A stretch of DNA of 64,000 nucleotides from Mobula hypostoma (Eukaryota): contig NC_086108.1 in NCBI RefSeq assembly GCF_963921235.1, forward strand, positions 46,006,001 to 46,070,000. The letters are read 5' to 3'. Numbering within the stretch: position 1 is the stretch's first letter; each line of letters starts with the position of its first letter. A program made the translations under genes and the position numbers. The notes below the pieces were generated by a model that saw nothing but the letters and a program-made list of their open reading frames with translations, searched no databases and was not told the DNA's origin. This document shows positions 1-59,949 of the stretch, piece by piece.

Positions 1-364
1 TCTACGTACCTATCCTGCACCTGGACCATATTCCTCCAATCTCCTCTCATCTACGTACCTATCCTGCACCTGGACCATATTCCTTCAATCTCCTCTCATC
101 TATGTATCTATCCTGCACCTGGACCATATTTCTCCAATCTCCTCTCATCTATGTACCTATCCTGCACCTGGACTATATTCCTCCAATCTTCTCTCATCTA
201 CGTACCTATCCTGCACCTGGACCATATTCCTCCAATCTCCTCTCATCTATGTACCTATCCTGCACCTGGACCATATTCCTCCAATCTCCTCTCATCTACG
301 TACCTATCCTGCACCTGGACCATATTCCTCCAATCTCCTCTCATCTGTGTACCCATCCTGCACC
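1..364. repeat. 49-bp minisatellite (~7.4 copies, runs off the window edge) derived from the CR1 ORF2 3' end
   Basis: Unit TCTACGTACCTATCCTGCACCTGGACCATATTCCTCCAATCTCCTCTCA starts at 1, 50, 99, 148, 197, 246, 295, 344. The reverse complement encodes DRYVDERRLEEYGPGA, matching the CR1 C-terminus DRYMDGRCMEGYGPCAG at ~40000-40050. Confidence 0.92.
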
Positions 365-890
365 TGCTACTTCTGCTAGCAGCTTGTTCCAGATTCGCAC
401 CATCTTCTGAATGAAGAAGTTTCTCTCCAGAATTCCCTCTGAATATTTCACCTTTCACACTAAACCTATGGTCTCTAGTTCTACTCTCACCCAGCCTGAG
501 AGGAGAAGCACCAGTCCTTACCTCTCATAACTTTGTACACAGTACCTCCATAAGACTTCCCCTCATTCTTCTGCGATCCAGGCAATAAAGTCTTAACTGA
601 TTCAACCTTTCCCCATAACTCAAGTCTTCAAGTCCAGCAACAGCCTGTAATTTTCTCAGCACTCGTTCAAGCTTATTGATGTTTTCCCTGCAGATAGGTG
701 ACCAAAACTGCACATAATACTGAAGACTCTGCCTCAGCAACATCTTGTACAATGTCAGCATTAACAGCCCAACTCCCGTACTCAACGCACTGCTTTATAA
801 AGGCCAATATGTCAAAAGCGTTTTGACCCTATCTACTGTGGTACCACATCAAAGAATTATGGATCTGTATTCCCAGGTCCTTTTTGTATG
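365..890 (-). mobile_element. Degenerate CR1 LINE 3' fragment
   Basis: ORF 525..785 (YYVQFWSP..LERV..LSYGERLNQL..RRRMRG) matches the CR1 ORF2 C-terminal region seen in the other copies. Confidence 0.85.
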
Positions 891-2482: not shown

Positions 2483-2600
2483 TCTAGTATCTTTTGTCCA
2501 TATTCATTGTCCCAGCCATAAGATGGGAAATTCCTTGGTTTTCCAAAAGTAACTCTGGAAGCTGAGACTTTGATGAGGGGGTTGGCCAATGACTGGAAAC
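2483..2600 (-). CDS. ovoA: ovoA exon 7 (start of the FGE-sulfatase-like domain); the gene continues beyond the left edge
   Basis: cctgtag|GTTTCCAG...ATACTAGA|gtatgt, 118 nt, phase 1 to phase 2. Encodes (G)FQSLANPLIKVSASRVTFGKPRNFPSYGWDNEYGQKIL; the GKP..FPSYGWDNEYG motif is characteristic of OvoA. Confidence 0.93.
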
Positions 2601-3569: not shown

Positions 3570-4060
3570 CTACAACACCTGATGCAGGTTGGAGGATCAC
3601 TTCATTGAGCACCTTCGTTCCACCTGTCGGGATCTCCCTGAGCTAGCTTTTTAAATTTTACTTCCCATTCCCACACTGACATATCTGTCCATGGTCTCCC
3701 CTACTACCAGGCTGAGGCTAGACACAGTTTTGTAGAACAACACCTCATATTCCACCTTGGTCATCTCCAACCTGACAGCATCAACATCAACTCCTCTAAT
3801 TTCAGGAAACTACTCCCCTCTGACCCTTTTTTTTGCCCCTTGTCTCACTAGCCCCCATTATCCCTTCTCTTTCCCCCTCCCCTGTTCTCTTGATCTGCCC
3901 ATCATTCACACATTCCTCCCACTGGTTCCCCTCTTCATATCCTTCCCTTTATCCACAGTCTACTATCAGATTCCATCTTCTTCCGTCCTTTGTCACTTTA
4001 GTTTGTCACTGTGCTCATCCACCATCATCTCAGCTGGCCTTTGCAGCTTCTTCAGAACAA
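3570..4060 (+). mobile_element. Degenerate Penelope-like element 3' fragment
   Basis: Aligns by eye to 21370-21850 (cccattcccacactgacatatctgtccatgg...gaacaacacctcatattcc...ctccaacctga), followed by pyrimidine-rich pLTR sequence. Confidence 0.75.
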
Positions 4061-4264
4061 TTTCCTTTACCTCCTTTTTATTTATCCTCTCTGGGCTTGG
4101 GCACTGATCTCTCTAACCTTATGACCAACTCACTAATGTGTCCAGTGTGGTCACAAGATGTAAGACACGAGAGGCCACTTCCAATCACACAAGAGAGTGC
4201 CAGCCTAGGGAGATATTTTTGCCATCTAGGAATGCTACACTGTGAATATGAGAAATCCACTGAC

Positions 4265-4391
4265 CACTCTTTGACGGGGCATATTTCTAGTTTAGAGGCC
4301 TCTGAACCAGGTGAATTGGCAGCTGACGAATTAGCACGGATGAAGTTTCCAAATGAATTCGCTCATGTTCAAATCCCATGAAAATTGCCCA
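4265..4391 (-). CDS. ovoA: ovoA exon 6, containing the HX3HXE iron-binding motif and an in-frame TAG (4289-4287)
   Basis: tttttttccag|TGGGCA...AAGAGTG|gtcagt, 127 nt, phase 0 to 1. Encodes WAIFMGFEHERIHLETSSVLIRQLPIHLVQRPLN*KYAPSKS(G). Confidence 0.95.
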
Positions 4392-4855
4392 CTGGAAAAA
4401 AAAAGATAAAAATGAGCTGGCTTTCATTTTGTTATTGTCCTTACAAGAAAAGTATTGCAATGCACTGCAGTCTTTGGGAAACAATCTGAAAAAATGCAAT
4501 AGGTTTATTTTTGCAATTCACTTGGAAGTTCAGTCAGGTTTTAATCCCAAATGTCACAAACCGGCTCGTCTCAGCATAGCTGGTGGTTTGGATGCTGAAG
4601 AAGATCTTAGACCTGCTATATGCTGATGCCTGATGTTGTAGTGTGTGAAGGAAGAGAAGTGGGTGCAGTTACTGTTACAAGAGAGAAGATGCTCAAAAAG
4701 CTGAAAGACCTAAAGGTACATAAGTCACCCGGACCAGATGAACTGCACCCTAGGGTTTTAGAAACATAGAAACATAGAAAATAGGTGCAGGAGTAGGCCA
4801 TTCGGCCCTTCGAGCCTGCACCGCCATTTATTATGATCATGGCTGATCATCCAAC

Positions 4856-7800
4856 TCAGAACCCTGCCCCAGCCTTCCCTCCATACCCCCTGACCCCCGT
4901 AGCCACAAGGGCCATGTCTAACTCCCTCTTAAATATAGCCAATGAACTGGCCTCAACTGTTTCCTGTGGCAGAGAATTCCACAGATTCACCACTCTCTGT
5001 GTGAAGAAGTTTTTCCTAATCTCGATCCTAAAAGGCTTCCCCTCTATCCTCAAACTGTGGCCCCTCGTTCTGGACTTCCCCAACATTGGGAACAATCTTC
5101 CTGCATCTAGCCTGTCCAATCCCTTTAGGATCTTATACGTTTCAATCAGATCCCCCCTCAATCTTCTAAATTCCAACGAGTACAAGCCCACTTCATCCAG
5201 TCTTTCTTCATATGAAAGTCCTGCCATCCCAGGAATCAATCTGGTGAACCTTCTTTGTACTCCCTCTATGGCAAGGATGTCTTTCCTCAGATTAGGGGAC
5301 CAAAACTGCACACAATACTCCAGGTGTGGTCTCACCAAGACCTTGTACAACTGCAGTTGTACCTCCCTGCTCCTGTACTCGAATCCTCTCGCTATAAATG
5401 CCAGCATACCATTCGCCTTTTTCACGGCCTGCTGTACCTGCATGCCCACTTTCAATGACTGGTGTATAATGACACCCAGGTCTCGTTGCACCTCCCCTTT
5501 TCCTAATCGGCTACCATTCAGATAATAATCTGTTTTCCTATTTTTGCCACCAAAGTGGATAACTTCACATTTATCCACATTAAATTGCATCTGCCATGAA
5601 TTTGCCCACTCACCCAACCTATCCAAGTCACCCTGCATCCTCTTAGCATCCTCCTCACAGCTAACACTGCCACCCAGCTTCGTGTCATGCGCAAACTTGG
5701 AGATGCTGCATTTAATTCCTTCATCCAAGTCATTAATATATATTGTAAACAACTGGGGTCCCAGCACTGAGCCTTGCGGTACCCCACTAGTCACCGCCTG
5801 CCATTCTGAAAAGGTCCCATTTATTCCCACTCTTTGCTTCCTGTCTGCTAACCAATTCTCCACCCACACCAATACCTTACCCCCAATACCGTGTGCTTTA
5901 AGTTTGCACACTAATCTCCTGTGTGGGACCTTGTCAAAAGCCTTTTGAAAATCCAAATATACCACATCCACTGGTTCTCCCCTATCCACTCTACTAGTTA
6001 CATCCTCAAAAAATTCTATGAGATTCGTCAGACATGATTTTCCTTTCACAAATCCGTGCTGACTTTGTCCGATCATTTCACTGCTTTCCAAATGTGCTGT
6101 TATCACATCCTTGATAACTGACTCCAGCAGTTTCCCCACCACTGACGTTAGGCTAACCGGTCTATAATTCCCCGGTTTCTCTCTCCCTCCTTTTTTAAAA
6201 AGTGGAGTTACATTAGCCACCCTCCAATCCTCAGGACCTAGTCCAGAATCTAACGAGTTTTGAAAAATTATCACTAATGCATCCACTATTTCTTGGGCTA
6301 CTTCCTTAAGCACTCTAGGATGCAGAGCATCTGGCCCTGGGGATTTATCTGCCTTCAATCCCTTCAATTTACTTAACACCAGTTCCCTACTAACATGTAT
6401 TTCGCTCAGTTCCTCCATCTCACTGGACCCTCTGTCCCCTACTATTTCTGGAAGATTATTTATGTCCTCCTTACTGAAGACAGAACCAAAGTAATTATTC
6501 AATTGGTCTGCCATGTCCTTGCTCCCCATAATCAATTCACCTGTTTCTGTCTGCAGGGGACCTACATTTGTCTTTACCAGTCTTTTCCTTTTTACATATC
6601 TATAAAAGCTTTTACAGTCCGTTTTTATGTTCCCTGCCAGTTTTCTCTCATAATCTTTTTTCCCTTTCCTAATTAAGCCTTTTGTTCTCCTCTGCTGAAC
6701 TCTGAATTTCTCCCAGTCCTCAGGTGAGCCACTTTCTCTGGCTAATTTGTATGCTTCTTCTTTGGACTTGATACTATCCCTAATTTCTCTTGTCAGCCAC
6801 GGGTGCACTACCTTCCTTGATTTATTCTTTTGCCAAACTGGGATGAACAATTGTTGTAGTTCATCCATGCAACCTTTAAATGCTTGCCATTGCATATCCA
6901 CCGTCAATCCTTTAAGTGTCATTTGCCAGTCTATCTTAGCTAATTCACGTCTCATACCTTCAAAGTTACCCCTCTTTAAGTTCAGAATCTTTGTTTCTGA
7001 ATTAACTATGTCACTCTCCATCTTAATGAAGAATTCCACCATATTATGGTCACTCTTACCCAAGGGGCCTCTCACGACAAGATTGCTAATTAACCCTTCC
7101 TCATTGCTCAAAACCCAGTCCAGAATAGCCTGCTCTCTAGTTGGTTCCTCGACATGTTGGTTCAAAAAACCATCCCGCATACATTCCAAGAAATCCTCTT
7201 CCTCAGCACCTTTACCAATTTGGTTCACCCAATCTACATGTAGATTGAAGTCACCCATTATAACTGCTGTTCCTTTATTGCACACATTTCTAATTTCCTG
7301 TTTAATACCATCTCCCACCTCACTACTACTGTTAGGTGGCCTGTACACAACTCCCACCAGCGTCTTCTGCCCCTTAGTGTTACGCAGCTCTACCCATATC
7401 GATTCCACATCTTCCCGGCTTATGTCCTTCCTTTCTATTGCGTTAATCTCTTCTTTAACCAGCAACGCCACCCCACCTCCCCTTCCTTCTTGTCTATCCC
7501 TCCTGAATATTGAATATCCCTAAACGTTGAGCTCCCATCCCTGGTCACCCTGGAGCCATGTCTCTGTGATCCCAACTATATCATAATCATTAATAACAAT
7601 CTGCACTTTCAATTCATCCACCTTATTACGAATGCTCCTTGCATTGACACACAAAGCCTTCAGGCGCTCTTTTACAAATCTCTTAGCCCTTATACAATTA
7701 TGCTGAAAAGTGGCCCTTTTTAATGCTTGCCCTGGATTTGTCGGCCTGCCACTTTTACTTTTCTCCTTAGTACTTTTTGCTTCTATCCTCACTTTACACC

Positions 7801-7903
7801 CCTCTGTCTCTCTGCACTGGTTCCCATCCCCCTGCTGTGAACTAACCTCCTCACGCCTAGCCTCTTTAATTTGAATCCCACCACCCAACCATTCTAGTTT
7901 AAA
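4856..7903 (-). pseudogene. CR1 ORF2 (APE endonuclease + reverse transcriptase) with one in-frame TAG (7522-7520) and a catalytic-motif change FADD to FAHD
   Basis: ORFs 7520..7888 and 4856..7471 are in the same frame. Motifs: [52 protein letters not shown]. Confidence 0.92.
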
Positions 7904-8886
7904 GTCACCTCAGTAGCCCCTGCTAATCTCCCTGCCAGGATATTGGTCCCCCTAGGATTCAAGTGTAACCCGTCCTTTTTATACAGGTCACGCCTGCGCC
8001 AAAAGAGGTCCCAATGATCCAAAAACTTGAATCCCTGCCCCCTGCTCCAATCCCTCAGCCACGCATTTATCCTCCACCTCATCGCATTCCTACTCTCACT
8101 GTCGCGTGGCACAGGCAGTAATCCGGAGATTACTACCTTTGCGGTCCTTTTCCTCAACTCCCTACCTAGCTCCCTATATTCTCCTTTCAGGACCTCATCC
8201 CTTTTCCTACCTATGTCATTGGTACCTATATGTACCTCGACCTCTGGCTCCTCACCCTCCCACTTCAGGATATCTTGGACACGATCAGAAATATCCTGGA
8301 CCCTGGCACCAGGGAGGCAAACCACCATCCGGGTCTCTGGACTGTGTCCACAGAATCGCCTATCTGACCCCCTTACTATTGAGTCCCCTATCACAACTGC
8401 CCTCCTCTTCCTTGCCCTACCCTTCTGAGCTACAGGGCCAGACTCTGTGCTGGAGGCACGGCCACTGTCGCTTCCCCCGGGTAAGCTGTCCCCCCCAACA
8501 GTACTCAAACAGGAGTACCTGTTGTTAAGGGGCACAGCCACCGGAGTACTCCCTATTACCTGACTTTTCCCCTTCCCCCTCCTAACCATGACCCACTTGT
8601 CTGCCTCCCGTGGCCCCGGCGTGACCACCTGCCTGCAACTCCTCTCTATCACCTCCTCACTCTCCCTGACCAGATGAAGGTCATCGAGCTGCAGCTCCAG
8701 TTCCGTAACGCGGTCCCTTAGGAGCTGCATCTTGATGCACTTGGCGCAGATGTAGACGTCCGGGAGGCTTGGAGACTCCAGGGCCTCCCACATCCGACAC
8801 CGAGAACAGCAAACTGCCCTCACACTCATACTGCCCCTCTCCTCAAATAGCAACAGAAAATGAATGCCAAACCTTCCTCGCCTCAC
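7894..8886 (-). CDS. CR1 ORF1 protein (zinc finger, leucine zipper, SGNH/GDSL esterase-like domain)
   Basis: CSRC..CAKC zinc finger, LRDRVTELELQLDDL coiled coil, VVIGDSIVRG, HIGTND and DGLHLN SGNH blocks. Frame is intact; the true start is probably MSVRAVCC. Confidence 0.92.
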   Translation of the reverse strand: MRRGRFGIHFLLLFEERGSMSVRAVCCSRCRMWEALESPSLPDVYICAKCIKMQLLRDRVTELELQLDDLHLVRESEEVIERSCRQVVTPGPREADKWVMVRRGKGKSQVIGSTPVAVPLNNRYSCLSTVGGDSLPGGSDSGRASSTESGPVAQKGRARKRRAVVIGDSIVRGSDRRFCGHSPETRMVVCLPGARVQDISDRVQDILKWEGEEPEVEVHIGTNDIGRKRDEVLKGEYRELGRELRKRTAKVVISGLLPVPRDSESRNAMRWRINAWLRDWSRGQGFKFLDHWDLFWRRRDLYKKDGLHLNPRGTNILAGRLAGATEVTLN

Positions 8887-11446
8887 CTGTTTTCGCCTAA
8901 GCCCGTTGAGCCGAAGCCCTTAAGTCTTCACTCTGCTCCCGGCTCACTCCGCAGCCCGCAAACTACGCTGCCCGCTCTATGAGGCTCTGTTCCTTTTAAA
9001 TCTGCCGCGCTGCACTGCCCAACGTCACACGCCTGCGCAGTCCCGCCTCTCAGAACACCGTTGGAGAAAAAAAATAACGAAAATTTCAAAAATGTCTTTC
9101 TCGGCACTCCCACTCAGACTCTCAGACTCCTTGAAAGAGGTAGCATTAGAAATTGTGGTGGAATTAGAAATGATCTTTCAAAACTCATTGAACTCTGGCA
9201 TGGTGCCAGAGGACTGGAAAATTGCAAATGTCACTCCACTCTTTAAGAAAGGAGGAAGGCAGCAGAAAGGAAATTATAGACCAGTTAGACAGACCTCAGT
9301 GGTTGGGAAGATGTTCGAATCAATCGTTAAGGATGAGGTGATGGAGTACTTGGTGACACAGGACAAGATAGTACAAAGCTAGCATGATTTCCTTCAGGGA
9401 AAATCTTGCCTGACAAACCTGTTGGAATTCTTTGAGGAGATTACAAGTAGGATAGATAAAGGGGATGTAGTGGATGTTGCATATTTGGATTTTCAGAAGG
9501 CCTTTGATAACGTGCCACACATAAGGCTGCTTACTAAGTTAAGAGCCCATGGTGTTGCAGGAAAGTTACTAACATGGCTAGAACATTGGCTGATCAGTAG
9601 GAGGCAGCAGGTGGGAATAAAAGGAACCTTTTCTGGTTGGCTGCTGGTAACTAGAGGTGTTCTGCAGGGGTCAGTGTTGGGAGCCCTTCTTTTTATGCTG
9701 TATATAAATGATTTAGTTGATGTAATAGATAGCTTTGTTGCCAAGTTGCAGATGATACAAAAATTGGTGGAGGGGCAGGTAGTGCTGAAGAAACAGATAG
9801 GATGCAGAAGGACTTAGACAGATTAGGAGAATGGGCAAGAAAGTGGCAAATGAAATACAATGTTGGAAAATGCATGGTCATCCACTTTGGTAATAGAAAT
9901 AAATGTGTGGACTATTTTCTAACTGGGGAGAAAATCCAGGAATCTGAGATGCAGAGGGACTTGGGATTCCTTGTGCAGAACACCCTGAAGGTTAACTTGC
10001 AGGTTGAGTCGGTGGTGAGCAAGGCAAATGCCATATTAGCATTCATTTCAAGAAGTCCGGAATACAAGAGCAAGGATGTGATGCTGAGGCTTTATAAGGC
10101 ACTGGTGAGGCCTCACCTTGAGTATTGTGAACAGTTTTTGGCTCCTCATCTTAGAAGAGATGTGCTGGCATTGGAGAGGGTCCAGAGGAGGTTCACAAGG
10201 ATGATTCCAGGAATGAAAGGGTTATCACATAAGGAATGTTTGATGATTCTGGGTCTGTACTTGCTGAAATTTAGAAGGATGAGGGGGAATCTCATTGAAA
10301 CCTTTCGAATGTTGAAAGGCCTAGACAGAGTAGATGTGGAAAGGATGTTTCCCATGGTGGGAGAGTCTAGGACAAGTGGGCACAGCTTCAGGATAGAGGG
10401 GTGTCCTTTCAAAACAGAGATACAGAGAAATTTCTTTAGCCAAAGGGTGGTGAATTTGTGGTAATTGTTGCCACATGCAGCTGTGGAGGCCAGGTCATTG
10501 GGTGTATTTAAGGTAGAGATTGATAAGTTCTTGATTGGACATGGCATCAAAGGTTACGGGGAGAAGGCTGGGAACTGGGGTTGTGGAGGAGATAGAAAAA
10601 AAGATCAGCCATGATTGAATGGCAGAGCAGACTCGATGGGTCAAATGGCCTAATTCTGCTCCTATGTCTTATAGTCTTATAGTCTTATTTAAGAAAAGGA
10701 GAAAGTTCATCACAGAGATGTCCCTTCTAAGAGCTGAGCTGAACTCTGGGTTAAGGGACTTAAAAACGTGCAAAATTACAGCACAGGAAAAGGCCCTTCA
10801 AACCTCGAAGTTGTGCCTTTGCTGAAGTTTCACATTTGATTAGGTTCATTTTACAAGAAACAGACAACCTGTTTAGTCACAAAGAAAAACTCCCATCCAA
10901 CAGCTTTTATTGTTGATTACATCATTGTTAGTGTCCAGAGCCTTTAAAGTGAGGTCATTAGTGTGGGGAATGGAACAGGGTTTTATTTCAGGTACCCCAT
11001 GCTAGCATGGAAGAATGCCGGTACAAGTCTCCTTTCCCATCCTGTGTCAAATACCCAAGTCAGATATTGCATGGATCGGGTGAAAATCAAGCCTCCTTTT
11101 ACACTTGTACATCAGACCTTCTCAGGCTATGAAATAAGGTGCACTTAAAGTTGCCTCTATATTGTCCATTGAAGCACTCTCCACCCTGGGGAAGGCTTAT
11201 TATTAGTAATAAAGTTAATATATAATATTATTAATTATTATTAGTAAAGTTCGCTAAGGTATGCCACCAACATAACGTCACCTGGAATTTCCCTGACTTC
11301 AGCCTAACTTCCATATTGCTTTATTTTTGTTAATAGTAGCAGAGAGTTTGAATGAGGGATGAACAGAGTTGACTAAACAGTACATTTTCCTCCACCATAG
11401 AACTCTTTGTATCTTAAATCAAATGGAAGAATATTTATCTCCTTAC

Positions 11447-11587
11447 CCAAGGACTGTCCATTGTTATTGGAAGCTCTAGTACAGTCTCCTGAATGACTTT
11501 ACGAACTACATACCGTATCTTCTTCCGGTACTCAACACATTCCTTTAACGTAGGCCAGTTGAAACTTCCCCCCAGTCGACAATTCTC
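11447..11587 (-). CDS. ovoA: ovoA exon 5
   Basis: atcatcag|GAGAAT...CCTTGG|gtaagg, 141 nt, phase 0 to 0. Encodes ENCRLGGSFNWPTLKECVEYRKKIRYVVRKVIQETVLELPITMDSPW and joins WAIFMGFEHERIH of exon 6. Confidence 0.93.
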
Positions 11588-13585: not shown

Positions 13586-13654
13586 CGTGTCATCCCAGGA
13601 CATCTCATCCACTCCCGCCTCAAAGAGAGTTTCAAAGCTGGGTTCTACTTGCTC
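13586..13654 (-). CDS. ovoA: ovoA exon 4
   Basis: tttgttttgtcgtccacag|GAGCAA...GACACG|gtgtgt, 69 nt, phase 0 to 0. Encodes EQVEPSFETLFEAGVDEMSWDDT (OvoA GVDEMSWDD motif). Confidence 0.95.
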
Positions 13655-16729: not shown

Positions 16730-16842
16730 CTTAATGAGTCCAGAGAGCAGCAGTTTATTGATGTAAAACACGGAAGGATGGCAGAAGTAGAAGATGAGAG
16801 GTAGCCGTAGTTGGTCTGGGCACAGGCTGAAGCTGGACTCAC
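16730..16842 (-). CDS. ovoA: ovoA exon 3 (contains the first iron-ligand His, H68)
   Basis: ttttgttctgtttattcttccag|GTGAGTCC...ATTAAG|gtaaaa, 113 nt, phase 1 to 0. Encodes (G)ESSFSLCPDQLRLPLIFYFCHPSVFYINKLLLSGLIK (OvoA LRxPLIFYxxH..xxNKL motif). Confidence 0.94.
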
Positions 16843-20445: not shown

Positions 20446-20714
20446 CACAACTCTCCTGGTAGTTCTTTAAACTCAAAAGCACATCACATTTTAATATTGT
20501 ACCCTTAAGATCAAAGGTAACAGCTGGTGATTTAATACAATCTCAATAGTTACAATGACATTGTTTACTTCTATACTTTGCATTGACAAATTGTTCCTCT
20601 GAGGTATATATTTACAGTGGAAGTACTTTGTAATTGATAAGACACATCTGAAGTTCAAAAGCCCTGGCTGGGAGAAATTAACTAACACAAATATTCTAAA
20701 AAAAACTTCTGACA

Positions 20715-22050
20715 ACAGAGAGCCAGATACCCACTGACTCTCACAGCTATCTGGACTATTCCTCTTCTCACCCTGTCTCTTGCAAAAATGCCATCCCCTT
20801 CTCGCAATTCCTCCGTCTCCGCCGCATCTGCTCTCATTTGAGGTTTTTCATTCTAGGACGAGGGAGATGTCCTCCTTTTTTAAAAGAAAGGGGCTTCCCT
20901 TCCTCCACCATCAACTCTGCTCTCAAACGCATCTCCCCCATTTCACGCACATCTGCTCTCACTCCAGCCTCCCGTCACCCCACTAGGAATAAGGTTCCCC
21001 TTGTCCTCACCTATCACCCCACCAGCCTCCGGGTCCAACATATTATTCTCCGTAACTTCCGCCACTTCCAACGGGATCCCACCACTAAGCATATCTTTCC
21101 CTCCCCCCCCGCCCCGCTTTCCACAGGGATCGCTCCTTACGCATCTCCCTTGTCCATTCGTCCCCCCCCATCCCTCCCCACTGATCTCCCTCCTGGCAAT
21201 TATCCTTGTAAGCAGAACAAGTGCTACACATGCCCTTACACTTCCTCCCTTACCACCATTCAGGGCCCCAGACAGTCCTTCCAGGTGAGGCGACACTTCA
21301 CCTGTGAGTTGGCTGGGGTGATATACTGCATCTGGTGCTCCCGATGTGGCCTTCTATATATTGGCAAGACCCGACGCAGACTGGGAGATCGTTTTGCTGA
21401 ACACCTACGCTCTGTCTGTCAGAGAAAGCAGGATCTCCCAGTGGCCACACATTTTAATTCCACATCCCATTCCCGTTCTGACATGTCTATCCACGGCCTC
21501 CTCTACTGTAAAGATGAAGCCACACTCAGGTTGGACGAACAACACCTTATATTCCGTCTGGGTAGCCTCCAACCTGATGGCATGAACATTGACTTCTCTA
21601 ACTTCCGCTAATGCCCCATCTCCCCCTCGTACCCCATCCGTTATTTATTTATATACACACATTCTTTCTCTCTCTCTCCTTTTTCTCCCTCTGTCCCGCT
21701 GACTATACCTCTTAGCCCTTGCCCATCCTCTGGGTTTTCACCCCTCCCCCTTTTCCTTCTCCCTGGGCCTCCTGTCCCATGATCCTCTCATATCCCTTTT
21801 GCCAATCACCTGTCCAGCTCTTGGCTCCATCCCTCCCCCTCCTATCTTCTCCTATCATTTTGGATCTCCCCTCCCCCTCCCACTTTCAAATCTCTTACTA
21901 GCTCTTCCTTCAGTTAGTCCTGACGAAGGGTCTCGGCCCGAAACATCGGATGTACCGCTTCCTGGAGATGCTGCCTGGCCTGCTGCGTTCACCAGCAACT
22001 TTGATGTGTGTTGCTTGAATTTCCAGCATCTGCAGAATTCCTTGTGTTTA
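20715..22050 (+). mobile_element. Penelope-like element 3' portion: RT thumb/linker, GIY-YIG endonuclease and pseudo-LTR
   Basis: ORF 20838..21611 has PLVLTYHP, C..C..C and GVIYCIWCSRCGLLYIGKTRRRLGDRFAEH (GIY-YIG). Followed by a pLTR with a hammerhead motif. Confidence 0.9.
21916..21951 (+). ncRNA. Minimal type I hammerhead ribozyme motif in a Penelope pLTR
   Basis: AGTC-CTGACGA-A-GGGT(CTCG)GCCC-GAAAC-ATC-GGAT: CUGANGA core, 4-bp stem II, GAAA, minimal stem III. Other copies in the window give ...GAAACGTCGACT, which closes stem I with AGTC. Confidence 0.65.
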
Positions 22051-23805: not shown

Positions 23806-26800
23806 TTTCCAAAATATTAGCAATTAGAATAGAGAAGATACTACCACAAATAGTCTCAGAAGATCAGACAGGATTTATTAAAAATCGTTACTCACATTTT
23901 AATGTTAGGAGGCTAATGAACATTGTGTACACTACGTCAGTTAAAACTCCAGAATGTGTTATTTAGCTTGACGCCGGGAAGGCATTTGACAGACTTGAAT
24001 GGGAACATTTATTTGATATACTTGAGAAATTTAATTTCAGCTCAAAATTTATATCCTGGATTCAATTGATATATTGTACACCTCTGGCTGCTGTATTTAC
24101 CAATAATCAGAGATCCCCATTTTTTAGGCTTTTTCGAGGTATGAGACAGGGCTATCCTCTAAGCCCTTTACTTTTTGATATTGCCCTGGAGCCTTTGGCA
24201 ATTGCTATTCATGATTCACCTAATATATTTGGCATTTTTTGTGGGAATGGGATGCATAAAATATCACTATATGCAGATGACCTGTTACTATATATCTCTA
24301 AACCAGAGAAATACATTCCTGCAGTAATAACACTATTTGCTCAGTTTAGTAGTTTTTCTGGTTGTAAACTGAATCTTGATAAGAGTGTGCTTTTCCCATT
24401 AAATATGCAAGTTCCAATTTATAGACAATCACCATTTAGATTTGTTACTGATTATTTTACTTATTTGGGTGTTAAGATTACTAAGAAGCATAAGGATCTA
24501 TTTAAAGTTAATTTTTTACCCATAATGATCATGTTAAACAACTGTTTATTAATTGGTCCCCATTGTCCTTATCTTTTATTGGTTGAATTAATACTATTAA
24601 GATGATTATTTTACCTAAATTTCTGTATCTATTTTAGGTGGTAGCAATTTTTTATCCCTATATCTTTTTTTGGTATTATTGATTCTAAAATTTCTTCATA
24701 GATATAGCAGATTAAGTAAGAAATATTTACAGAAATCAAAAAAAGAAGGCGGTTTGGCTTTGCCGAATCTTAGATTTTACTACTGGGCAAATAACATTTG
24801 ATATTTAACGCTTTGGACACAAGAATTGGACGAAACTCAAATGTCCATGATGGATGAACCTTGAGCGGGAGTCTGTACAGGGTTTTTCGCTGGCTTCTAT
24901 TCTAGGAACTGCGATTCCCTTAGCACTTACTAAATTGAATAAACAAATGATAAATCCAATATTTAAACATACAATACGAATATGGTTTCAATTTCATAAA
25001 TTCTTTGGATTGAACAAATTTATCCTGTCAAGTTCTATTATGTCTATTTTTTCTTTCAACCATCTAGAATTGATCAAGCTTTTCTTCTATGGAAAACAAA
25101 GGGAATAACATGTTTTCGTGATTAATTCATAGATGATGAATAAACTCAGACTCAGCAGAAAGCAGCTGATTGGGCAGTCGAGGTCAGGTGACCAAGCATT
25201 TTGAAAAGCTCAAACAGATAAATAGAGGGATAGCTCAAGCGAAGCGGCCAGAGCGTGAGTGGGCCAGTGAAGGAGTGGAACTTTGAGGCTTTGACTCGAG
25301 AGGCTTCGACGAGAAGAGGCGGAGGACAAGCTTGCTCGCAGTTAGTTTTTACAATGTCTCCTGAGACGGTGATGTGCCTCTCATGTGAGATGTGGCAGTC
25401 TTGGGGGAACGCCCCTCTCCCTCAGAGTCACATCTGCCAGAAGTGCATACGGCTGGGCGATATGGAAGACTGTGTAAGGACTCTGGAGCAGCAGCTGGAT
25501 GACCTTTGACTCATAAGGGAGAATGAGGCAGTCACAGATGAGAGCTACAGGGAGGTAGTCACACCTAGGCTGTCGGAAGCAGGTCATTGGGTGACAGTCA
25601 GAGGGTGGAAAGCGAAGGTGAGCAGACAGCTAGTGCAGAGCACCCCTGTAGCCATTCCCCTGAATAATAAGTTTACCGTCCTGGATACTGTTGGCGGGGA
25701 CGACCGACCAGGTGTGAGCCACGGTGGCAAGGCCTCCAGTGCTGAGTCTGACCCGATGGTGCAGAAGGGTGGGACGGAGAAGAGGAGAGCTGTCGTCATT
25801 GGAGACTCTATAGTCAGGGGAGCAGACAGGAGATTTTGCGGACGTGAGAAGGACACCCGCATGGTTTGTTGCCTCCCGGGTGTCAGGGTCCGGGATATCT
25901 CTGACTGGTTGCACGACATCCTGGTATGAGAGGGAAAGCAACCAGAAGTTGTGATACATGTATGGACCAACGACATAGGCAGGAAGAGGGATGAGGTCCT
26001 GAAGTGTTAGTTTCGGGAACTAGGCAGAAGGCTGAAGAACAGGACCTCAAGGGTGGCATTCTCAGGATTGCTGCCAGTGCTATGTGACAGTGATGGTAAG
26101 AATTGGAGGAGATGGCAGTTGAATGCGTGGCTGAGGAGTTGGTGCAGGGAGCAGGGTTTTAGATTTTTGGATCATTGGGATCTCTTCTGGGGAAGGTGGG
26201 ACCTGTACAGATTGGATGGGTTGCACCTGAACTTGAGGGGGAGCAATATCCTTGCAGGTAGGTTCACTGGCATGGTTCGGGAGGGTTTAAACTACTTTGC
26301 AAGGAGGATGGGACCCAGAGTGATAGAGCAGTGAAAGAAGTGCATGGAGTAAAGCCAGATCTAACATATAGAGAAGATTTGAGGAAAGAGAAGCAGAATA
26401 AATGGTGTAAAGACAGTAAGGTAGAGGAGCTGAAGTGTGTGTACCTCAATGCAAGAAGCATCAGGAACAAAGGTGAAGAACTGAGAGCTTGGATACATAC
26501 ATGGAATTATGATATAGTGGCCATTACAGAGACGTGGCTGGCACCTGGGCAGGAATGGATTCTCAATATTCCTGGATTTCAGTGCTTTAAAAGGGATAGA
26601 GAGGGCGGGAAAAGGGGAGGAGGGGTGGCATTACTGGTCAAGGATACTATTACAGCTACAGAAAGGGTGGGTAATGTAGCAGGATCCTCTTTTGAGTCAG
26701 TATGGGTGAAAGTCAGGAACAGGAAGGGAGCAGTTACTCCATTGGGGGTATTCTATAGGCCCCCTGGTAGCAACAGAGATACAGAGAAGCAGATTGGGAG

Positions 26801-29800
26801 GCAGATTTTGGAAAGGTACAAAAATAACAGGGTTGTTATCATGGGTGACTTTAACTTCCCTAATATTGATTGGCACCTGATTAGTTCCAAGGGTTTAGAT
26901 GTGGCAGAGTTTGTTAAGTGTGTCCAGGATGGATTTCTGTCACAGTATATTGACAGGCCGACTAGGGGTAATGCCATACTAGATCTAGTACTAGGTAATG
27001 AACTGGGTCAGGTCACAGATCTCTCAGTGGGTGAGCATCTGGAGGACAGTGACCACTGCTCCCTGGCCTTTAGCATTATCATGGAACAGGATAGAATCAG
27101 AGAGGACAGGAAAATTTTTAACTGGGGAAGGGCAAATTATGAGGTTATAAGGCTAGAACTTGCGGGTGTGAATTGGGATGATGTTTTTGCAGGGAAATGT
27201 ACTATGGACATGTGGTCGATGTTTAGGGATCTCTTGCAGGAAGTAAGGGATAAATTTGTCCCGGTGAGGAAGATAAAGAATGGTAGGGTGAAGGAACCAT
27301 GGGTGACAAGTGAGGTGGAAAGTCTAGTCAGGTGGAAGAAGGCAGCATACATGAGGTTTAGGAAGCAAGGATCAGATGGGTCTATTGAGGAATATAGGGA
27401 AGCAAGAAAGGAGCTTAAGAAGGGGCTGAGAAGATCAAGAAGGGGGCATGAGAAGGCCTTGGCGAGTAGGGTAAAGGAAAACCCCAAGGCATTCTTCAAT
27501 TATGTGAAGAAAAAAGGATGACAGGAGTGAAGGTAGGACCGATTAGAGATAAAGGTGGGAAGATGTGCCTGGAGGCTGTGGAAGTGAGCGAGGTCCTCAA
27601 TGAATACTTCTCTTTGGTATTCACCAATGAGAGGGAACTTGATGATGGTGAGGACAATATGAGTGAGGTTGATGTTCTGGAGCATGTTGATATTAAGGGA
27701 GAGGAGGTGTTGGAGTTGTTAAAATATATTAGGACGGATAAGTTCCTGGGGCCTGACGGAATATTCCCCAGGTTGCTCCACGAGGCGAGGGAAGAGATTG
27801 CTGAGCCTCTGGTTAGGATCTTTATGTCCTCGTTGTCCACGGGAATGGTAGCGGAGGATTGGAGGGAGGCAAATGTTGTTCCCCTGTTCAAAAAAGGTAG
27901 TAGGGATAGTCCGGGTAATTATAGACCAGTGAGCCTTACGTCTATGGTGGGAAAGCTGTTGGAAAAGATTCTTAGAGATAGGATCTCTGGGCATTTAGAG
28001 AATCATGGTCTGATCAGGGACAGTCAGCATGGCTTTGTGAAGGGCAGATCGTGTCTAACAAGCCTGATAGAGTTCTTTGAGGAGGTGACCAGGCATATAG
28101 ATGAGGGTAGTGCAGTGGATGTGATCTATACGGATTTTAGTAAGGCATTTGACAAGGTTCCACACGGTAGGCTTATTCAGAAAGTCAAAATGGCATGAGA
28201 TCCAGGGAAGTTTGGCCAAGTGGATTCAGAATTGGCTTGCCTGCAGAAGGCAGAGGGTCGTGGTGGAGGGAGTACATTCAGATTGGAGGATTGTGACTAG
28301 TGGTGTCCCACAAGGATCTGTTCTGGGTCCTCGACTTTTCGTGATTTTTATTAACGACCTGGATATGGGGGTAGAAGGGTGGGTTGGCAAGTTTGCAGAT
28401 GACACAAAGGTTGGTGGTGTTGTAGATAGTGTAGATGATTGTCAAAGATTGCAGAGAGACATTGATAGGATGCAGAAGTGGGCTGAGAAGTGGCAGATGG
28501 AGTTCAACCCAGAGAAGTGTGAGGTGGTACACTTTGGAAGGACAAACTCCAAGGCAAAGTACAAAGTAAATGGCAGGATACTTGGTAGTGTGGAGGAGCA
28601 GAGGGATCTGGGGGTACATGTCCACTGATCCCTGAAAGTTGCCTCACAGGTGGATAGGGTAGTTAAGAAAGCTTATGGGGTGTTAGCTTTCATAAGTCAA
28701 GGGATAAGAGTTTAAGAGTTGCGATGTAATGATGTAGCCCTATAAAACTCTGGTTAGGCCACACTTGGAGTACTGTGTCCAGTTCTGGTTGCCTCACTAT
28801 AGGAAGGATGTGGAAACATTGGAAAGGGTACAGAGGAGATTTACTAGGATGCTGTTTGGTTTAGAGAGTATGCATTATGATCAGAGATTAAGGGAGCTAG
28901 GGCTTTACTCTTTGGAGAGGAGGAGGATGAGAGGAGACATGATAGAGCTGTACAAGATAATAAGAGGAATAGATAGAGTGGATAGCCAGCGCCTCTTCCC
29001 CAGGGCACCACTGCTCAATACAAGAGGACATGGCTTTAAGGTAAGGGGTGGGAAGTTCAAGGGGGATATTGGAGGAAGGTTTTTTACTCAGAGAATGGTT
29101 GGTGCGTGGAATGCACTGCCTGAGTCAGTGGTGGAGGCAGATACACTAGTGAAGTTTAAGACACTACTAGACAGGTATATGGAGGAATTTAAGGTGGGGA
29201 CTTATATGGGAGGCAGGGTTTGAGTGTCAGCACAACATTGTGGGCCAAAGGGCCTGTACTGTGCTGTACTATTCTATGTTCTATGATTGTTTTATGTCTT
29301 TTGAACAGTTGTCTAATAAATATAATTTGTCTAGATCACACTTCTTCAGATATTTACAGATTAGAAACTTTTTGAACGCTACATTATCTATCTTTCCTAT
29401 ATTGCATCAAATTGAAGTTACAGAAAAATTTTAGGTTTAAACCTCAATCAGAAGAGTTTAATAGCAATTATTTATGATCTGATTATGAAAATATGTCTAG
29501 GTAAATCTGATAAAATGAAGAATGAGTGGGAAAGAGAACTTCAAATATCTTTATCTACAGAGAAATGGGAGAAAATTCTTCAATGAGTCAATACTTCCTC
29601 AATGTGCGCCAGACACGCCCTGATACAATTTAAGGTGGTTTAGAGGGCTCACATGTCCAAGGATAAGTTAGCTCATCTTTATTGCCACATAAATCCTGTT
29701 TGTGATAGATGTAATTCTGAGGTAGCTTCCTTGACACATATGTTCTGGTTTTGTCCTCTTCTAGAAAAATATTGGAAAGATATTTTTGATATCATTTCAG

Positions 29801-30957: not shown

Positions 30958-31022
30958 CTTTGAGGGCACTAAACAATGTTTCATCCAAATCATAAGTATT
31001 CTCAAAGTAATCCAAAATATCC
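30958..31022 (-). CDS. ovoA: ovoA exon 2
   Basis: cttgtatatttcag|GGATATT...CTCAAAG|gtaagg, 65 nt, phase 2 to 1. Encodes (E)DILDYFENTYDLDETLFSALK(G). Confidence 0.93.
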
Positions 31023-31314: not shown

Positions 31315-31388
31315 TCTTTTGTGCAGTTGGCAAGATCACAGGGTTTAAGGGAGGTCAAACACAGCTTTCTAGTTAGAACAGAGTTCAT
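31315..31388 (-). CDS. ovoA: ovoA exon 1 coding part (start codon)
   Basis: aaaATGAACTCT...ACAAAAGA|gtaagt, 74 nt, ends in phase 2. Encodes MNSVLTRKLCLTSLKPCDLANCTK(E); phase matches exon 2. Confidence 0.88.
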
Positions 31389-37989: not shown

Positions 37990-39130
37990 TACCCATGTGT
38001 TGGAGGGAGAGGAAGGTTTCTCAGGACCTTGCTTTGTGGATTCAGAACTGGCTTGCCCACAGAAGGCAAAGGGTGGTTGTAGATGGTTCATATTCTTCAT
38101 GGAGGTCGGTGACCAGTGGTGTTCCGCAGGGATCTGGTTCTGGGACCCCTCCTCTTCGTGATTTTTATAAATGACCTGGATGAAGAAGTAGAAGGGTGGG
38201 TTAGTAAGTTTGCTGATGACACAGAGATTGGGGGTGTTGTGGGCAGTCTGGAGGGTTCTCAGAGGTTACTGCGAGACATTGATAGGATGCAGAACTGGGC
38301 TGAGAAGTGGCAGATGGACTTCAACCCAGATAAGTGTGAAGTGGTTCATTTTGGTAGGTCAAATTTGAAGACAAAATGTAATATAAATGGTAAGACTCTT
38401 GGCAGTGTGGAGGATCTGAGAGTTCTTGGGGTTTGTGTCGATAGGACACTCAAAGCTGCGGTGCAGGTTGACTGTGTTGTTAAGAAGGCAAATGGTGTGC
38501 TGGCATTCATCAACTGTGGGATTGAGTTCAAGAGCCCTGAAGTAATGTTACAGCTATATAAGACCTTGGTCAGACCCCACTTGGACTACTGTGTTCAGTT
38601 CTGGTCACCTCACTACAGGAAGTATGGAGATACTATAGAGAGAGTGCAGAGGAGATTTACAAGGATGTTGCCTGGATTGGAGGGCGTACCTTATGAGAGT
38701 AGGTTGAGTGTACTTGGCCTTTTCTTCTTGGAGTGACGGAGGATGAGTGGTGACCTGACAGAGGTGTACAAGATGATGAGGGACATTGATTGTGTGGATA
38801 GCCAGAGGCTTTTCCCCAGGGCTGAAATGTCTAACATGTGGGGGTATAGTTTTAAGATGCTCGGAAGTAGGTACCAAAGGGATATCAAGGGTACGTTTTT
38901 CACACAGAGGTTGGTGGTTGCGTGGAAAGGGCTGCCAGCAATAGTGTTGGAAGCGGATACAATAGGGTCTTTTAAGAACCTCTTAGGTAGGTACATAGAG
39001 CTTAGTAAGATAGAGGGCTTTGCATTGGGAAAATTCTACGCAGTCTCTGGAGTAGGTTACATGGTTGGTACAACATTGTGGGCCGAAGGGCCTGTAATGT
39101 GCTATAAATTTCTATGTTCTATGTTCTATG
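37990..39130 (+). mobile_element. 5'-truncated CR1 LINE
   Basis: ORFs 38116..38736 (VLGPLLF..SKFADDT..RPHLDYCVQFWSP) and 38743..39327. (TTCTATG)n tail at 39110-39130. Confidence 0.9.
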
Positions 39131-39908
39131 ACACTCTGTGTTCCACAGTCATTATCATCCTTTTAAAGCACTACAATGTGAGAACAGACAACAACTGGAC
39201 CAATTCCTTCTCCACACTGTACAGTCTCAAGCTGACAGCTGTACAACATGTATACTATGTGTCTTTGTTAGGTGGCATCATTAAGCATAGAGGAAACAGG
39301 ACACTAAAAGAAAAAAAAGCTTCCTGATGGAGTCTCTGCACCTTTAATTAAGTCTGATGAATACAAGAATAGGAAGAGACAATCCCCCATCAGTCTGCCC
39401 ACACTCACCGGCACTGGTCACGATATCGTCACTCATGAGTTGAGTTTCCTGAGGGGGAAAAGTATGGGCACCTTACCCAGTACTACCTTTTAAAGTCAAT
39501 CAGATGAATTGGAAGCAAAAGGTAAGAAAGTGGTTGGTAGGTGTGGCCTTGAGTGGGTGGGATGTGAAAGGTGACATCCCTGAAATCTTTCATGGACATC
39601 TCAAATTCTCAGTAAATTTATCACAGACTGAGATGAAGGAATAGAAGGTTCTAGGTCCAAGATTGCACAATTAATAGTGTTGATGGAAACAAATTTGCCA
39701 TGATGGAAACTCACTGGTTTCCTTGGTTATGTTGGTCTGGGGAAGACCGTCTCTGGCCCCGCCAAACGTGTCAGATTGAGGTGCGAGCCCACTGACACCC
39801 CATTCGTGTGGCTGCTGCGTGGCTCCTTACCCTGTTACAAACAAGACAGTACACTGCATACAATTAAATGATTTAGCTTTATAATCCTTAATTTCACTAA
39901 AGAGTTAA

Positions 39909-41711
39909 ACCATAGAAACCATAGAAAAACTACAGCACAGAAACAAGCCTTTTGGCCCTTCTTGGCTGTGCCGAACCATTTTCTGCCTAGTCCCACTGAC
40001 CTGCACACGGACCATATCCCTCCATACACCTCCCATCCATGTATCTGCCCAACTTATTTTTAAATGTTAAAAAAGAACCCGCATTTACCACCTCGTCTGG
40101 CAACTCATTCCACACTCCCACCACTCTCTGTATGAAGAAGTCCCCCTTAATGTTCCCTTTAAACTTTTCCCCCCTCACCCTTAACCCATGTCCTCTGGTT
40201 TTTTTCTCCCCTTGCCTCAGTGGAAAAAGCCTGCTTGCATTCACTCTATCTATACCCATCATAATTTTATATACCTCTATCAAATCTCCCCTCATTCTTC
40301 TACGCTCCAGGGAATAAAGTCCTAACCTATTCAACCTTTCTCTGTAACTGAGTTTCTCAAGTCCTGGCAACGTCCTTGTAAACCTTCTCTGCACTCTTTC
40401 AACCTTATTTATATCCTTCCTGTAATTTGGTGACCAAAACTGAACACAATACTCCAGATTCGGCCTCACCAATGCCTTATACAACCTCATCATAACACTC
40501 CAGCTCTTATACTCAATACTTTGATTAATAAAGGCCAATGTACCAAAAGCTCTCTTTACGACCCTATCTACTTGTGACGCCACTTTTAGGGAATTTTGTA
40601 TCTGTATTCCCAGATCCCTCTGTTCTACTGCACTCCTCAGTGCCCTACCATTTACCCTGTATGTTCTACCTTGGTTTGTCCTTCCAAAGTGCAATACCTC
40701 ACACTTGTCTGTATTAATCTCCATCTGCCATTTTTCAGCCCATTTTTCCAGCTGGTCCAAGTCCCTCTGCAGGCTCTGAAAACCTTCCTCACTGTCTACT
40801 ACACCTCCAATCTTTGTATCATCAGCAAATTTGCTGATCCAATTTACCACATTATCATCCAGATGATTGATATAGATGACAAATAACAATGGACCCAGCA
40901 CTAATCCCTGTGGCACACCACTAGTCACAGGCCTCCACTCAGAGAAGCAATTCTCTACCACCACTCTCTGGCTTCTTCCATGGAGCCAATGTCTAATCCA
41001 ATTTACCACCTCTCCATGTATACCTAGCAACTGAATTTTCCTAACTAACCTGCCATGCGGGACCTTGTCAAAGGCCTTACTGAAATCCATGTAGACAATA
41101 TCCACTGCCTTCCTTTCATCCTCTTTCCTGGTAACCTCTTCGAAAAACTGCAATAGATTGGTCAGACATGACCTACCACGCACAAAGCCATGTTGACTCT
41201 CCCTAATAAGTCCCTGTCTACCCAAATGCTTGTAGATTCTGTCTCTTAGTACTCCCTCCAATACCTTACCTACTACCGATGTTAAACTCACCGGCCTATA
41301 ATTTCCCGGATTACTTTTCAATCCTTTTTTAAACAACGGAACAACATGAGCCACTCTCCAATCCTCCGGCACCTCACCCGTAGACAGCGACATTTTAAAT
41401 ATTTCTGCCAGGGCCCCCGCAATTTCAACATTAGTCTCCTTCAAGGTCCGAGGGAACACTCTGTCAGGTCCACTTTAATTTTCCTCAAGACAGCAAGCAC
41501 CTCCTCCTTTTCAATCTGTACAGTTTCCATGATCTCACTACTTGATTCCCTCAATTCCATAGACTTCATGCCAGTTTCCTTAGTAAATACAGACGCAAAA
41601 AACCTATTTAAGATCTCCCCCATTTCCTTTGGTTCCGCACATAGCCGACCACTCTGATCTTCAAGAAGACCAATTTTATCCCTTACAATCCTTTTGCTCT
41701 TAATATACCTG
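39909..41711 (-). mobile_element. Young 5'-truncated CR1 LINE with an intact RT frame
   Basis: ORF 39987..41459 (490 aa, FADD). (CTATGGTTT)n tail at 39909-39930. Small deletion removing KSPG at ~41470. GTTA at both junctions. Confidence 0.93.
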
Positions 41712-49562: not shown

Positions 49563-50375
49563 ATATACTTTATACTTTATTGTCGCCAAACAATTGATAC
49601 TAGAACGTACAATCATCACAGCGATATTTGATTCTGTGCTTCCCGCTCACTGGATTACAAATCGATAGTAAATATTAAAAATTTAAATTATAAATCATAA
49701 ATAGAAAATAGAAAAATGGAAAGTAAGGTAGTGCAAAAAAACCGGGAGGCAGGTCCGGATATTTGGAGGGTACGACCCAGATCCGGGTCAGGATCCGTTC
49801 AGCAGTCTTATCACAGTTGGAAAGAAGCTGTTCCCAAATCTGGCCGTACGAGTCTTCAAGCTCCTGAGCCTACTCCTGGAGGGAAGAGAGATGAAAAGTG
49901 TGTTGACTGGGTGGGTCGTGTCCTTGATTATCCTGGCAGCACTGCTCCAACAGCGTGCGGTGTAAAGTGAGTGTAAGGACGGAAGATTGGTTTGTGTGAT
50001 GTGCTGTGCCATGTTCATGACCTTCTGCAGCTTCTTTCGGTCTTGGACAGGACAACTTCCATACCAGGTTGTGATGCACCCTAGAAGAATGCTTTCTACG
50101 GTGCATCTATAAAAATTACTGAGGGTTTTAGGGGACAGGCCAAATTTCTTTAGTTTTCTCAGGAAGTAAAGGCGCTGGTGGGCCTTCTTGGCAGTGGACT
50201 CTTCTTGGTTGGACCAAGTCAGGTCATTTGTGATATTGACCCCAAGGAACTTAAAGCTTTTGACCTGTTCCACTTGCGCACCACCGATGTAAATTGGATC
50301 ATGCGGTCCGCTACTCCTTCTGAAGTCAACAACCAATTCCTTCGTCTTGCTGACGTAGAGGGATAGGTTATTATA
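49563..50375 (-). mobile_element. 5'-truncated Rex1/Babar-like LINE
   Basis: ORF 49788..50336 (MVVDFRR..VKSFKFLGV..KKAHQRLYFLRKLKKFG..NSFFPTVIRLLN). (ATAAAGT)n tail. Confidence 0.88.
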
Positions 50376-52199
50376 TAGGTTGAGGGATAGCCTGCTTCTT
50401 TAAATTAACATTATAAATTAAATTAGAACAATTTCTACTTTATTGAAATTAAAACACTGCTTAAATAACTTAGTTTCAGATGATATCAATGAAAAGTGGC
50501 TTCTTTGAAAAAGTGTCAGTACTTGAAGAACAAGTGTCAATGACAGATACTAAACAAATTTATTCTTTCAAGGTCTGGACACAAAATGTGCTCTAGGTCT
50601 CCAATTAGTGCCCACTTTTAACAGGTTTATCAACAATGATAATCATTTAAGTGTTTGGAGACATAGTAAAGCAAACCCATACAACCATCTGAAGAGACTA
50701 AGGTGATTTGGAAATTCTGATTAAATTAGATATTTTAATATAATAGTTAATGTTTAGCAATTGATCCATAGGAAAAACACGGAGAACATTTCTGGACTGC
50801 GTATAGTGATGTGGGATTTACTATCTGATAGCTCAGATGCTCAATGGCAACGTTCAGAATATAATTTTACTCAAGGACTATTTGCAAAGCTATGGAAAAG
50901 CAGAGATGTGTGGGACTAATTGTACGGTTTGAAAGATCTTCCAATTAGTTGCTCTTTAAAATTGCCAGGACCAAAGGGATAAACGGCTTTGTTCCAAAAT
51001 CTATGACTTAACAAACAAAATCCATTTTGGCTAATAGGCAACGTGATCATCCCACAGAGGCGCAGCTGACATTTGCAAACTGTATTCCCAAATTTGCATG
51101 TATCCATGGAATGGGATTAACAAGCAGAGAGCAAAATTGTTATAATTGGCCAGAACCGGTCTTGAAGACAACCTGAAATGATTTGCCATCTTACAGAAAT
51201 AGTACACACCACAGAAAGTCTCATATTTCTAAGTAGCAACTAACATGTATTTTATACTGTTTTCCTTTTGTTGTCAACTCAGGCAATTTGAATGAAAAGA
51301 AAAACAGTTCAGTTACATTAAAACATTTTAAAGATTTTTAGTGATAAGCAGAGTAGTGAACAGATTGAAAAAGAAATCAATCATTCTTAATTACAATACA
51401 AATATCACCTGCCAGTCAAAAGCTTTAGTCATCTCCTATTAAAGTGAAAATGCTTCAGTAACAAATACCTGCGGGAGAAGCAGATGTAGAGCTGTGTGCT
51501 AGTTGTGTGAGTGATGTGCATGAGTACACTTTACATCATTTCCATTGTGTGTTTGCAACAAATGAGGAAACGTTTCCAAATACTATTGAGTTTGCCATTG
51601 TGCTCTCAGCATCGCATTTCAAGAAACATTTCTTTGAATTGACTTTAGGATTCACTGACATTTATACTGAAGCAGAAGACATTTATTTTAATAAATTACC
51701 TTTTACAATCTTTACTTTTCATCTGGAATAGGAGAAATCAAATTGAAGAAAAGGATTATAAAGCAGGATTGAGAAAATAATTCACTGTAATGAAGGAACT
51801 CAAATTCACACTGAGACATTTACAAGTAATGGGGAAAGACAGGGATTTTTTTTTGCTCAAAGCAACTGCTGTCTACCAAGGAAGGCTGTTAAAGTCTGAT
51901 GCATAAATGGGCTGAGAAGGCAATGATGGGTTTCCGTAATTATGTGAGCTGATTTTATATACAGGTATATGAAGTTCTAGCAGAAATGTGGCCAGCTGGT
52001 CCTGCATATTCAGGAACTATGGATATGTTATACACAAATTTCTGATTTTAATGAACATAAATTTGTGGTCAGTAAATGCTTGATTTCCTCAGTATAAGTA
52101 GATGTTAGGGATAATGTACTGAGAAAGTAATTATGTGCAGATGAAATCTAAACAAAATGTAATTGTTAGATCAGTTACTTCCCATTGCTAAAATTTTTT

Positions 52200-59637: not shown

Positions 59638-59949
59638 ATGAGTTTGTCTGTTTTCTGCATTTAAAAAAGAACCTGCCCGTGTCTGTCCCTTCAAAAGAAA
59701 CATGTGCTGTGCTATTTTTTTTAACTCGGCTGTTTCTCGCTGCACTTTTTAAAAAAACTTAGGCTCATTTTAAACTTCTTCATTGCTACTGTTATGTTTC
59801 ATAACTCCACAAAATAAAAACTAATCACAAGAAAAAATGGAAGCCCAGGAGAACAGGTCTTAGTTTCATTTTTACTTTAAGTTAGGCACACATGTAAGAT
59901 GTGATGCCATTCACTTACTGTTACATAGAACTCACAATGAATTGTTTAC

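Follow-up and report, generated by a model that had tools for sequence, protein, structure and literature searches.

The DNA analysed here, hereafter the window, is a 64,000-nucleotide stretch of the genome of the ray Mobula hypostoma, and it raises the question of whether this species has recently lost ovoA. OvoA is the 5-histidylcysteine sulfoxide synthase/methyltransferase, the first enzyme in the synthesis of the antioxidant ovothiol, and its structure is available as 8KHQ. The gene is reported in Callorhinchus and as lost in bony vertebrates, nematodes and insects, and the cartilaginous fishes are described as the jawed vertebrates that retain it (PMC4768315); the presence of ovoA in copepods, decapods and amphipods revises the arthropod part of that account (PMC8623360). 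A first-pass annotation of the window, made from its letters, described a single in-frame TAG at codon 189 of an otherwise clean ovoA, in an exon 6 whose frame continues to the donor by 4265 and through an intact exon 7, with no frameshift, splice-site defect or lost iron ligand to be seen.

Mapping by tblastn with four ray and shark OvoA proteins, over the 64-kb window and 120 kb of adjoining contig, yields a gene of 19 exons and 772 codons on the minus strand, with its ATG at 31388. The window holds exons 1-7, while exons 8-19 lie outside it (G000:C50:46002448-45951522) and reach up to 54.5 kb past its left end. The features within the window are as follows.

31315..31388, minus strand: ovoA exon 1, coding part (ATG at 31388; codons 1-25), from tblastn, boundaries and phase
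30958..31022, minus strand: ovoA exon 2 (codons 25-47), from tblastn, boundaries and phase
16730..16842, minus strand: ovoA exon 3 (codons 47-84; Arg59, Tyr65 and iron ligand His68), from tblastn and phase, residues mapped on 8KHQ
13586..13654, minus strand: ovoA exon 4 (codons 85-107), from tblastn, boundaries and phase
11447..11587, minus strand: ovoA exon 5 (codons 108-154), from tblastn, boundaries and phase
4265..4391, minus strand: ovoA exon 6 (codons 155-197; iron ligands His163 and His167; contains the stop), from translation, phase and the X5 contig spliced to exon 7
4287..4289, minus strand: premature TAG at codon 189, TGG (Trp) in relatives, from the assembly, the X1 and X5 contigs, relatives' contigs and protein alignment
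2483..2600, minus strand: ovoA exon 7 (codons 197-236; the FGE-like domain begins), from tblastn, phase and the X5 spliced contig

Most of the initial description is upheld at the level of gene structure. Exon 6 is bounded by an AG acceptor and a GT donor (4264-4263), one of its 42 codons is a stop, and protein searches with it return ray and shark OvoA as the best hits; exon 7 (2600-2483) is open. A boundary and phase check of all 19 exons finds GT-AG ends at 18 of 18 introns, joining phases and no frameshifts, and the three iron-binding His residues are present. The gene is not otherwise clean, however: the 2,319-nt frame has stops at codons 189, 758 and 773, every one TAG, of which the last is natural and the second falls in exon 19, outside the window. 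The NCBI annotation already divides the locus at the codon-189 stop, as two uncharacterised genes, one of them (XP_062920045.1; P0008, 188 aa) identical to codons 1-188 and the other (P0228, 402 aa) to codons 356-757. No second ovoA copy or intact paralogue was found in the genome assembly, which may be incomplete: a search with exon-6 DNA gave one match, and one with the C-terminal 402 aa gave 10 among 16 candidates scored, all of them exons of this locus.

The reality of the codon-189 stop can be judged from sequencing runs as well as from the assembly, in which it occupies minus-strand positions 4289-4287; eight of the 24 runs available were compared with the window. A lone altered base in a nearly intact gene could be a consensus error, which was one of the options first listed, but two runs separately assembled from reads both read TAG with no differences around it. 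From the DNA run X1 (sample S1, possibly the source sample), a contig of 991 nt spans 3664-4620 and shows no difference from the window. The other run, X5 (sample S2, with another study code), is probably RNA; it provides a 246-nt contig, likewise with 0 differences, in which exon 6 is spliced to exon 7 over a GT-AG intron, and a loose end among its contigs matches the start of exon 8. The RNA status of X5 is presumed, and is supported by this spliced contig. An error of assembly is accordingly a negligible prospect. A-to-I editing, also among those options, deserves attention in that UAG would become UIG, which is exactly Trp, and in that assembled contigs hide minor variants and a single tissue run covers the site. 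Yet the spliced X5 contig reads TAG, which refutes bulk editing, and the best partner of a 41-mer at the stop within 6 kb forms an interrupted duplex of -33.7 kcal/mol, against -24.4 to -37.6 for nine control exon 41-mers; we regard restoration of UGG in the message as no more credible than an assembly error.

The suggestion that the stop derives from TGG is supported by the relatives. All three related organisms that span codon 189 (B, D and G) have C at plus-strand position 4288 and thus read TGG; organism C (contigs ending at 4109), X20 (no exon cover), X10 and X12 give no cover at this codon, and in those three runs the lack of cover bears neither on expression nor on genotype. Organism B is the closest, with 50 differences in 2,024 non-coding bases (2.5%), and D and G are ~7% and ~6% diverged. 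In exon 6, by codon reading among the matches listed, the other eight differences of D and three of three in G are synonymous, and B has one missense (Arg185Ser) and one synonymous change. Full-length ovoA models are available for Hemitrygon, Pristis, three skates and several sharks, and the alignment of related rays and sharks that the first-pass annotation proposed as a check has Trp at codon 189 in all 12 full-length orthologues from chondrichthyans; the Hypanus fragment and 105 of the 113 other, non-chondrichthyan, OvoA rows have it too. None of the matches listed (120 rows per search) is a protein labelled as another Mobula species. The codon-189 stop is therefore real, derived and unedited, and a single G-to-A change from TGG to TAG at the Trp189 codon of the sole ovoA copy would account for it. 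As a separate observation, the Arg185Ser of B (window 4299, run X6), an organism that keeps TGG, alters a residue for which all 12 chondrichthyan rows have either Arg or Lys.

How far these data speak for the species depends on the samples. X1 is one of four DNA runs from the same sample, and assembled contigs drop minor alleles and variants, whether from heterozygosity or minor editing. S1 and S2 are the sole two conspecific samples over codon 189 among the runs compared; six X5 pieces, 1,769 nt in all, are free of differences, and the two samples may be one animal. A TGG allele in S2 is unlikely, since an intact allele, if expressed, would be no rarer in RNA than the nonsense allele, and it is likely that no TGG allele is expressed in that sample.

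The consequence for the enzyme can be read against OvoA itself (TIGR04344 plus TIGR04345; 8KHQ, from Hydrogenimonas thermophila), with which the Mobula gene shares its domain order and mapped active-site residues. All catalytic residues mapped by alignment to 8KHQ are encoded: His68, His163 and His167 equal H71, H162 and H166, Arg59 equals R62, Tyr65 equals Y68, Tyr466 equals Y406 and Phe469 equals F409. The OvoA active site is described as a three-His iron site at which Arg and Tyr bind cysteine, with a Tyr and a Phe (Tyr466 and Phe469 here) that touch the metal-bound water and the histidine substrate (PMC10696552). Unlike the known enzyme, the Mobula frame is cut at codons 189 and 758, and the enzyme is likely not made. 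The predicted removal of the FGE-like and methyltransferase domains holds, as both are encoded past codon 189; in intact Hemitrygon OvoA the FGE-like domain occupies residues 208-515 and is followed by the methyltransferase (Pfam), and Tyr466 and Phe469 are in exon 12, past the stop. Translation would end at residue 188 and leave a fragment that has the iron His residues and lacks both the Tyr466/Phe469 half of the active site and the methyltransferase, so that the sulfoxide would not be made. The first in-frame Met past the stop is 356, and a product from it would be without the iron site. Against TIGR04344 (cut-off 400 bits) the intact Hemitrygon protein scores 635 bits and the two Mobula fragments, scored as separate pieces, 239 and 222 bits; TIGR04345 matches P0228 with an E value of 8.6e-17, which, as for the intact Hemitrygon protein, is under the bacterial cut-off.

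The spliced ovoA message is present, as the X5 contig attests, and is probably a target of nonsense-mediated decay, which is expected because 13 exon junctions lie downstream of the codon-189 stop. With stops at codons 189 and 758 no uninterrupted OvoA reading frame exists, and on this evidence from sequence ovoA is very likely non-functional in this animal and its ovothiol synthesis has likely ended. Two routes of rescue, the skipping of exon 6 and the use of a cryptic donor ahead of the stop, were considered and rejected, the outcome being either out of frame or without most of the FGE-like domain.

Some function might nevertheless persist, either through UAG readthrough, which was an option from the outset, or through the downstream half acting alone as a thiohistidine methyltransferase. 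The message is normally spliced at exons 6-7-8, the downstream exons are well preserved and modelled by NCBI as a separate 402-aa gene, and bacteria have stand-alone methyltransferases of such kind (OvoM, OvsM). Readthrough itself finds no support: we know of no readthrough motif that the AAC-UAG-AAA context fits, the predicted fold of the 100 nt past the stop is no more stable than that of shuffled sequences (z -0.78), the stop is not conserved, being TGG in the relatives, and TAG also serves as the natural end of this gene. The preservation of the downstream exons is accounted for by the recency of the lesion, and the codon-758 stop truncates the downstream model in turn. Partial function is in our view improbable.

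The second in-frame TAG, at codon 758 (G000:C50:45951569; L007, near 5569; minus strand), stands 15 codons before the natural stop and trims 15 residues. It follows directly on the conserved Trp757 of the last strand and replaces a Lys that is present in 10 of 12 chondrichthyan rows. All 102 of the other rows with Trp757 extend at least two residues beyond it, most by three or four, and Chiloscyllium ends two residues past the Trp. The 14 codons past the codon-758 stop still resemble the Hemitrygon tail. This stop may have struck a gene that was already dead, or it may be older and no more than a mild, tolerated shortening; both nonsense codons are on the same assembly haplotype.

Besides the two stops, no decay in the form of frameshifts, splice defects or an excess of missense changes was detected across the 19 exons, and 710 of 772 residues are identical to those of Hemitrygon akajei OvoA. 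At 230 sites kept in at least 80% of the 113 non-chondrichthyan rows, Mobula differs at 15, namely the stop and 14 changes each common to another cartilaginous fish. Private missense changes at the 229 deeply conserved sites are thus 0, against ~5.7 expected under neutral evolution ever since B split off (P ~0.003), an expectation that assumes equal rates and a transition bias of 4; the 95% bound on neutral time is about half of the branch since that split. The 334 sites invariant among other chondrichthyans give no age bound, with five private missense changes in Mobula against 0-13 in other sharks and rays. Changes on its own lineage number 17 in Mobula and 30 in Hemitrygon (P 0.08). The lesion looks young, and the loss recent, because 18 of 18 introns keep GT-AG ends and there are neither frameshifts nor private missense changes at deeply conserved sites.

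Rates measured against Pristis are 52:25 for Mobula, 61:26 for Hemitrygon and 43:23 for Hypanus. These ratios, with the changes that the three share at conserved Tyr52, Arg57 and Val131, pointed to relaxed selection throughout the stingray clade, an idea rejected in that Leucoraja is also faster (81:30) and the conserved-site counts are like those of other tips. Counting Tyr110, Mobula, Hemitrygon and Hypanus have changes in common at four positions conserved elsewhere, near the cysteine-binding loop, and none of these is mapped as catalytic.

The youth of the lesion is also what makes it possible that the stop is a segregating null allele, for which this animal is homozygous or hemizygous by chance while the species retains working ovoA alleles. 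The rest of the gene is without decay, so that the lesion is young enough for polymorphism, and the site is covered in only two samples, possibly from one animal. Individuals commonly carry homozygous loss-of-function alleles, as human data show. Set against this, a homozygous derived allele should more often be fixed when divergence (~1.2% per branch) exceeds diversity, and the haplotype carries another nonsense codon as well. We treat a segregating allele as a serious but unlikely alternative, and favour a fixed, species-level and recent loss of ovoA in M. hypostoma, which is probable on the sequences compared here.

The stop is transcribed and spliced without editing, as the X5 contig indicates; more tentatively, the allele would have gone to fixation, and the loss would be tolerated in that a live-bearing plankton feeder may get ovothiol from its prey. 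Mobulids filter plankton (PMC12690469), and ovothiol is reported in the lens of fish without ovoA, its source being left unsettled between diet, symbionts or another pathway (PMC6572425). The dietary account has against it that B, ~2.5% diverged and presumably of similar diet, keeps TGG. The loss may be separate from that in bony vertebrates. The losses in bony vertebrates and in nematodes and insects likewise removed the first ovothiol enzyme from an animal, but they are ancient and no orthologue was found there, whereas in Mobula the whole gene of 19 exons is present, it is transcribed, and the site is one base from that of the relatives.

Closer counterparts are the young unitary pseudogenes and loss-of-function alleles of primate GULO and UOX and human CASP12. 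In each, as in Mobula ovoA, a single-copy gene is disabled by a nonsense change, and the product of GULO is dietary; fixation and loss of the product are established for GULO and UOX, CASP12 is polymorphic, and Mobula ovoA is a candidate only. It has the marks of a unitary pseudogene in its germline disabling mutation, the absence of any intact paralogue seen and the intact orthologues of its relatives. In the literature searched, which takes in few subscription papers, no lesion of ovoA was found described for any ray. The mechanism, a single nonsense change, is ordinary, and the value of the case is that of a young and testable pathway loss: the age of the bony-vertebrate loss bars tests of the reasons proposed for it, while a young loss in Mobula beside a TGG relative at 2.5% permits direct comparison, the question being whether M. 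hypostoma still contains ovothiol, and from what source. Should the stop prove to be one animal's null allele, the case would come down to a reference genome that carries a loss-of-function variant, and to the reason why NCBI splits the gene.

A possible parallel is offered by Hypanus sabinus, whose ovoA appears in NCBI as two models of 301 aa and 343 aa (P0124, P0229), with exons 1, 7, 8 and 11 absent from both. A broken locus can present itself in this way. Yet none of 264 invariant sites is altered in the modelled exons, which are 96.3% identical to Hemitrygon; such conservation is in keeping with a fault in the assembly or the annotation, or with deletions that are very recent. It is conceivable, if rather doubtful, that ovoA has been lost repeatedly and independently among the live-bearing batoids of the stingray line, through the nonsense change in Mobula and separate breaks in Hypanus sabinus, with diet replacing synthesis; if so, species with and without the gene would form a living paired model for the loss of ovothiol synthesis in bony vertebrates. 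Upstream of Mobula exon 1, the translation of window 35598-35545 (minus strand) matches the odd N-terminus of P0124, with 14 of 18 residues identical, which suggests that P0124 took a non-gene segment as its first exon.

Several ray and shark OvoA models end in alternative tails past exon 17. Just past this exon, intron 17 of the Mobula gene (~C50:45966030-45965760, L002-L006) contains a match to one such tail, that of Hemitrygon isoform X2 (P0004), which in Mobula is interrupted by a stop and changes frame.

Of 28 long frames in the window, 14 were scanned, and no other cellular gene was identified among them. Intron 5 of ovoA contains a young, near full-length LINE (window ~4760-9120, minus strand) in the same orientation as the gene, ending ~370 nt before exon 6. 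It has a 341-codon ORF that encodes a GDSL/SGNH esterase domain, and an endonuclease-RT frame that is open for 887 codons. Out of 1,699 candidates for other copies, the 39 that were scored match a 301-nt piece of it at 98-99% identity. Further retroelement remains, at 20700-21611 (plus strand), 26262-27521, 38113-41474, 49788-50399 and 54005-60513, comprise one GIY-YIG (Penelope-like) frame along with several frames for RT or endonuclease. In intron 7, window positions 1-380 are a minisatellite with a unit, judged by eye, of ~46 nt.
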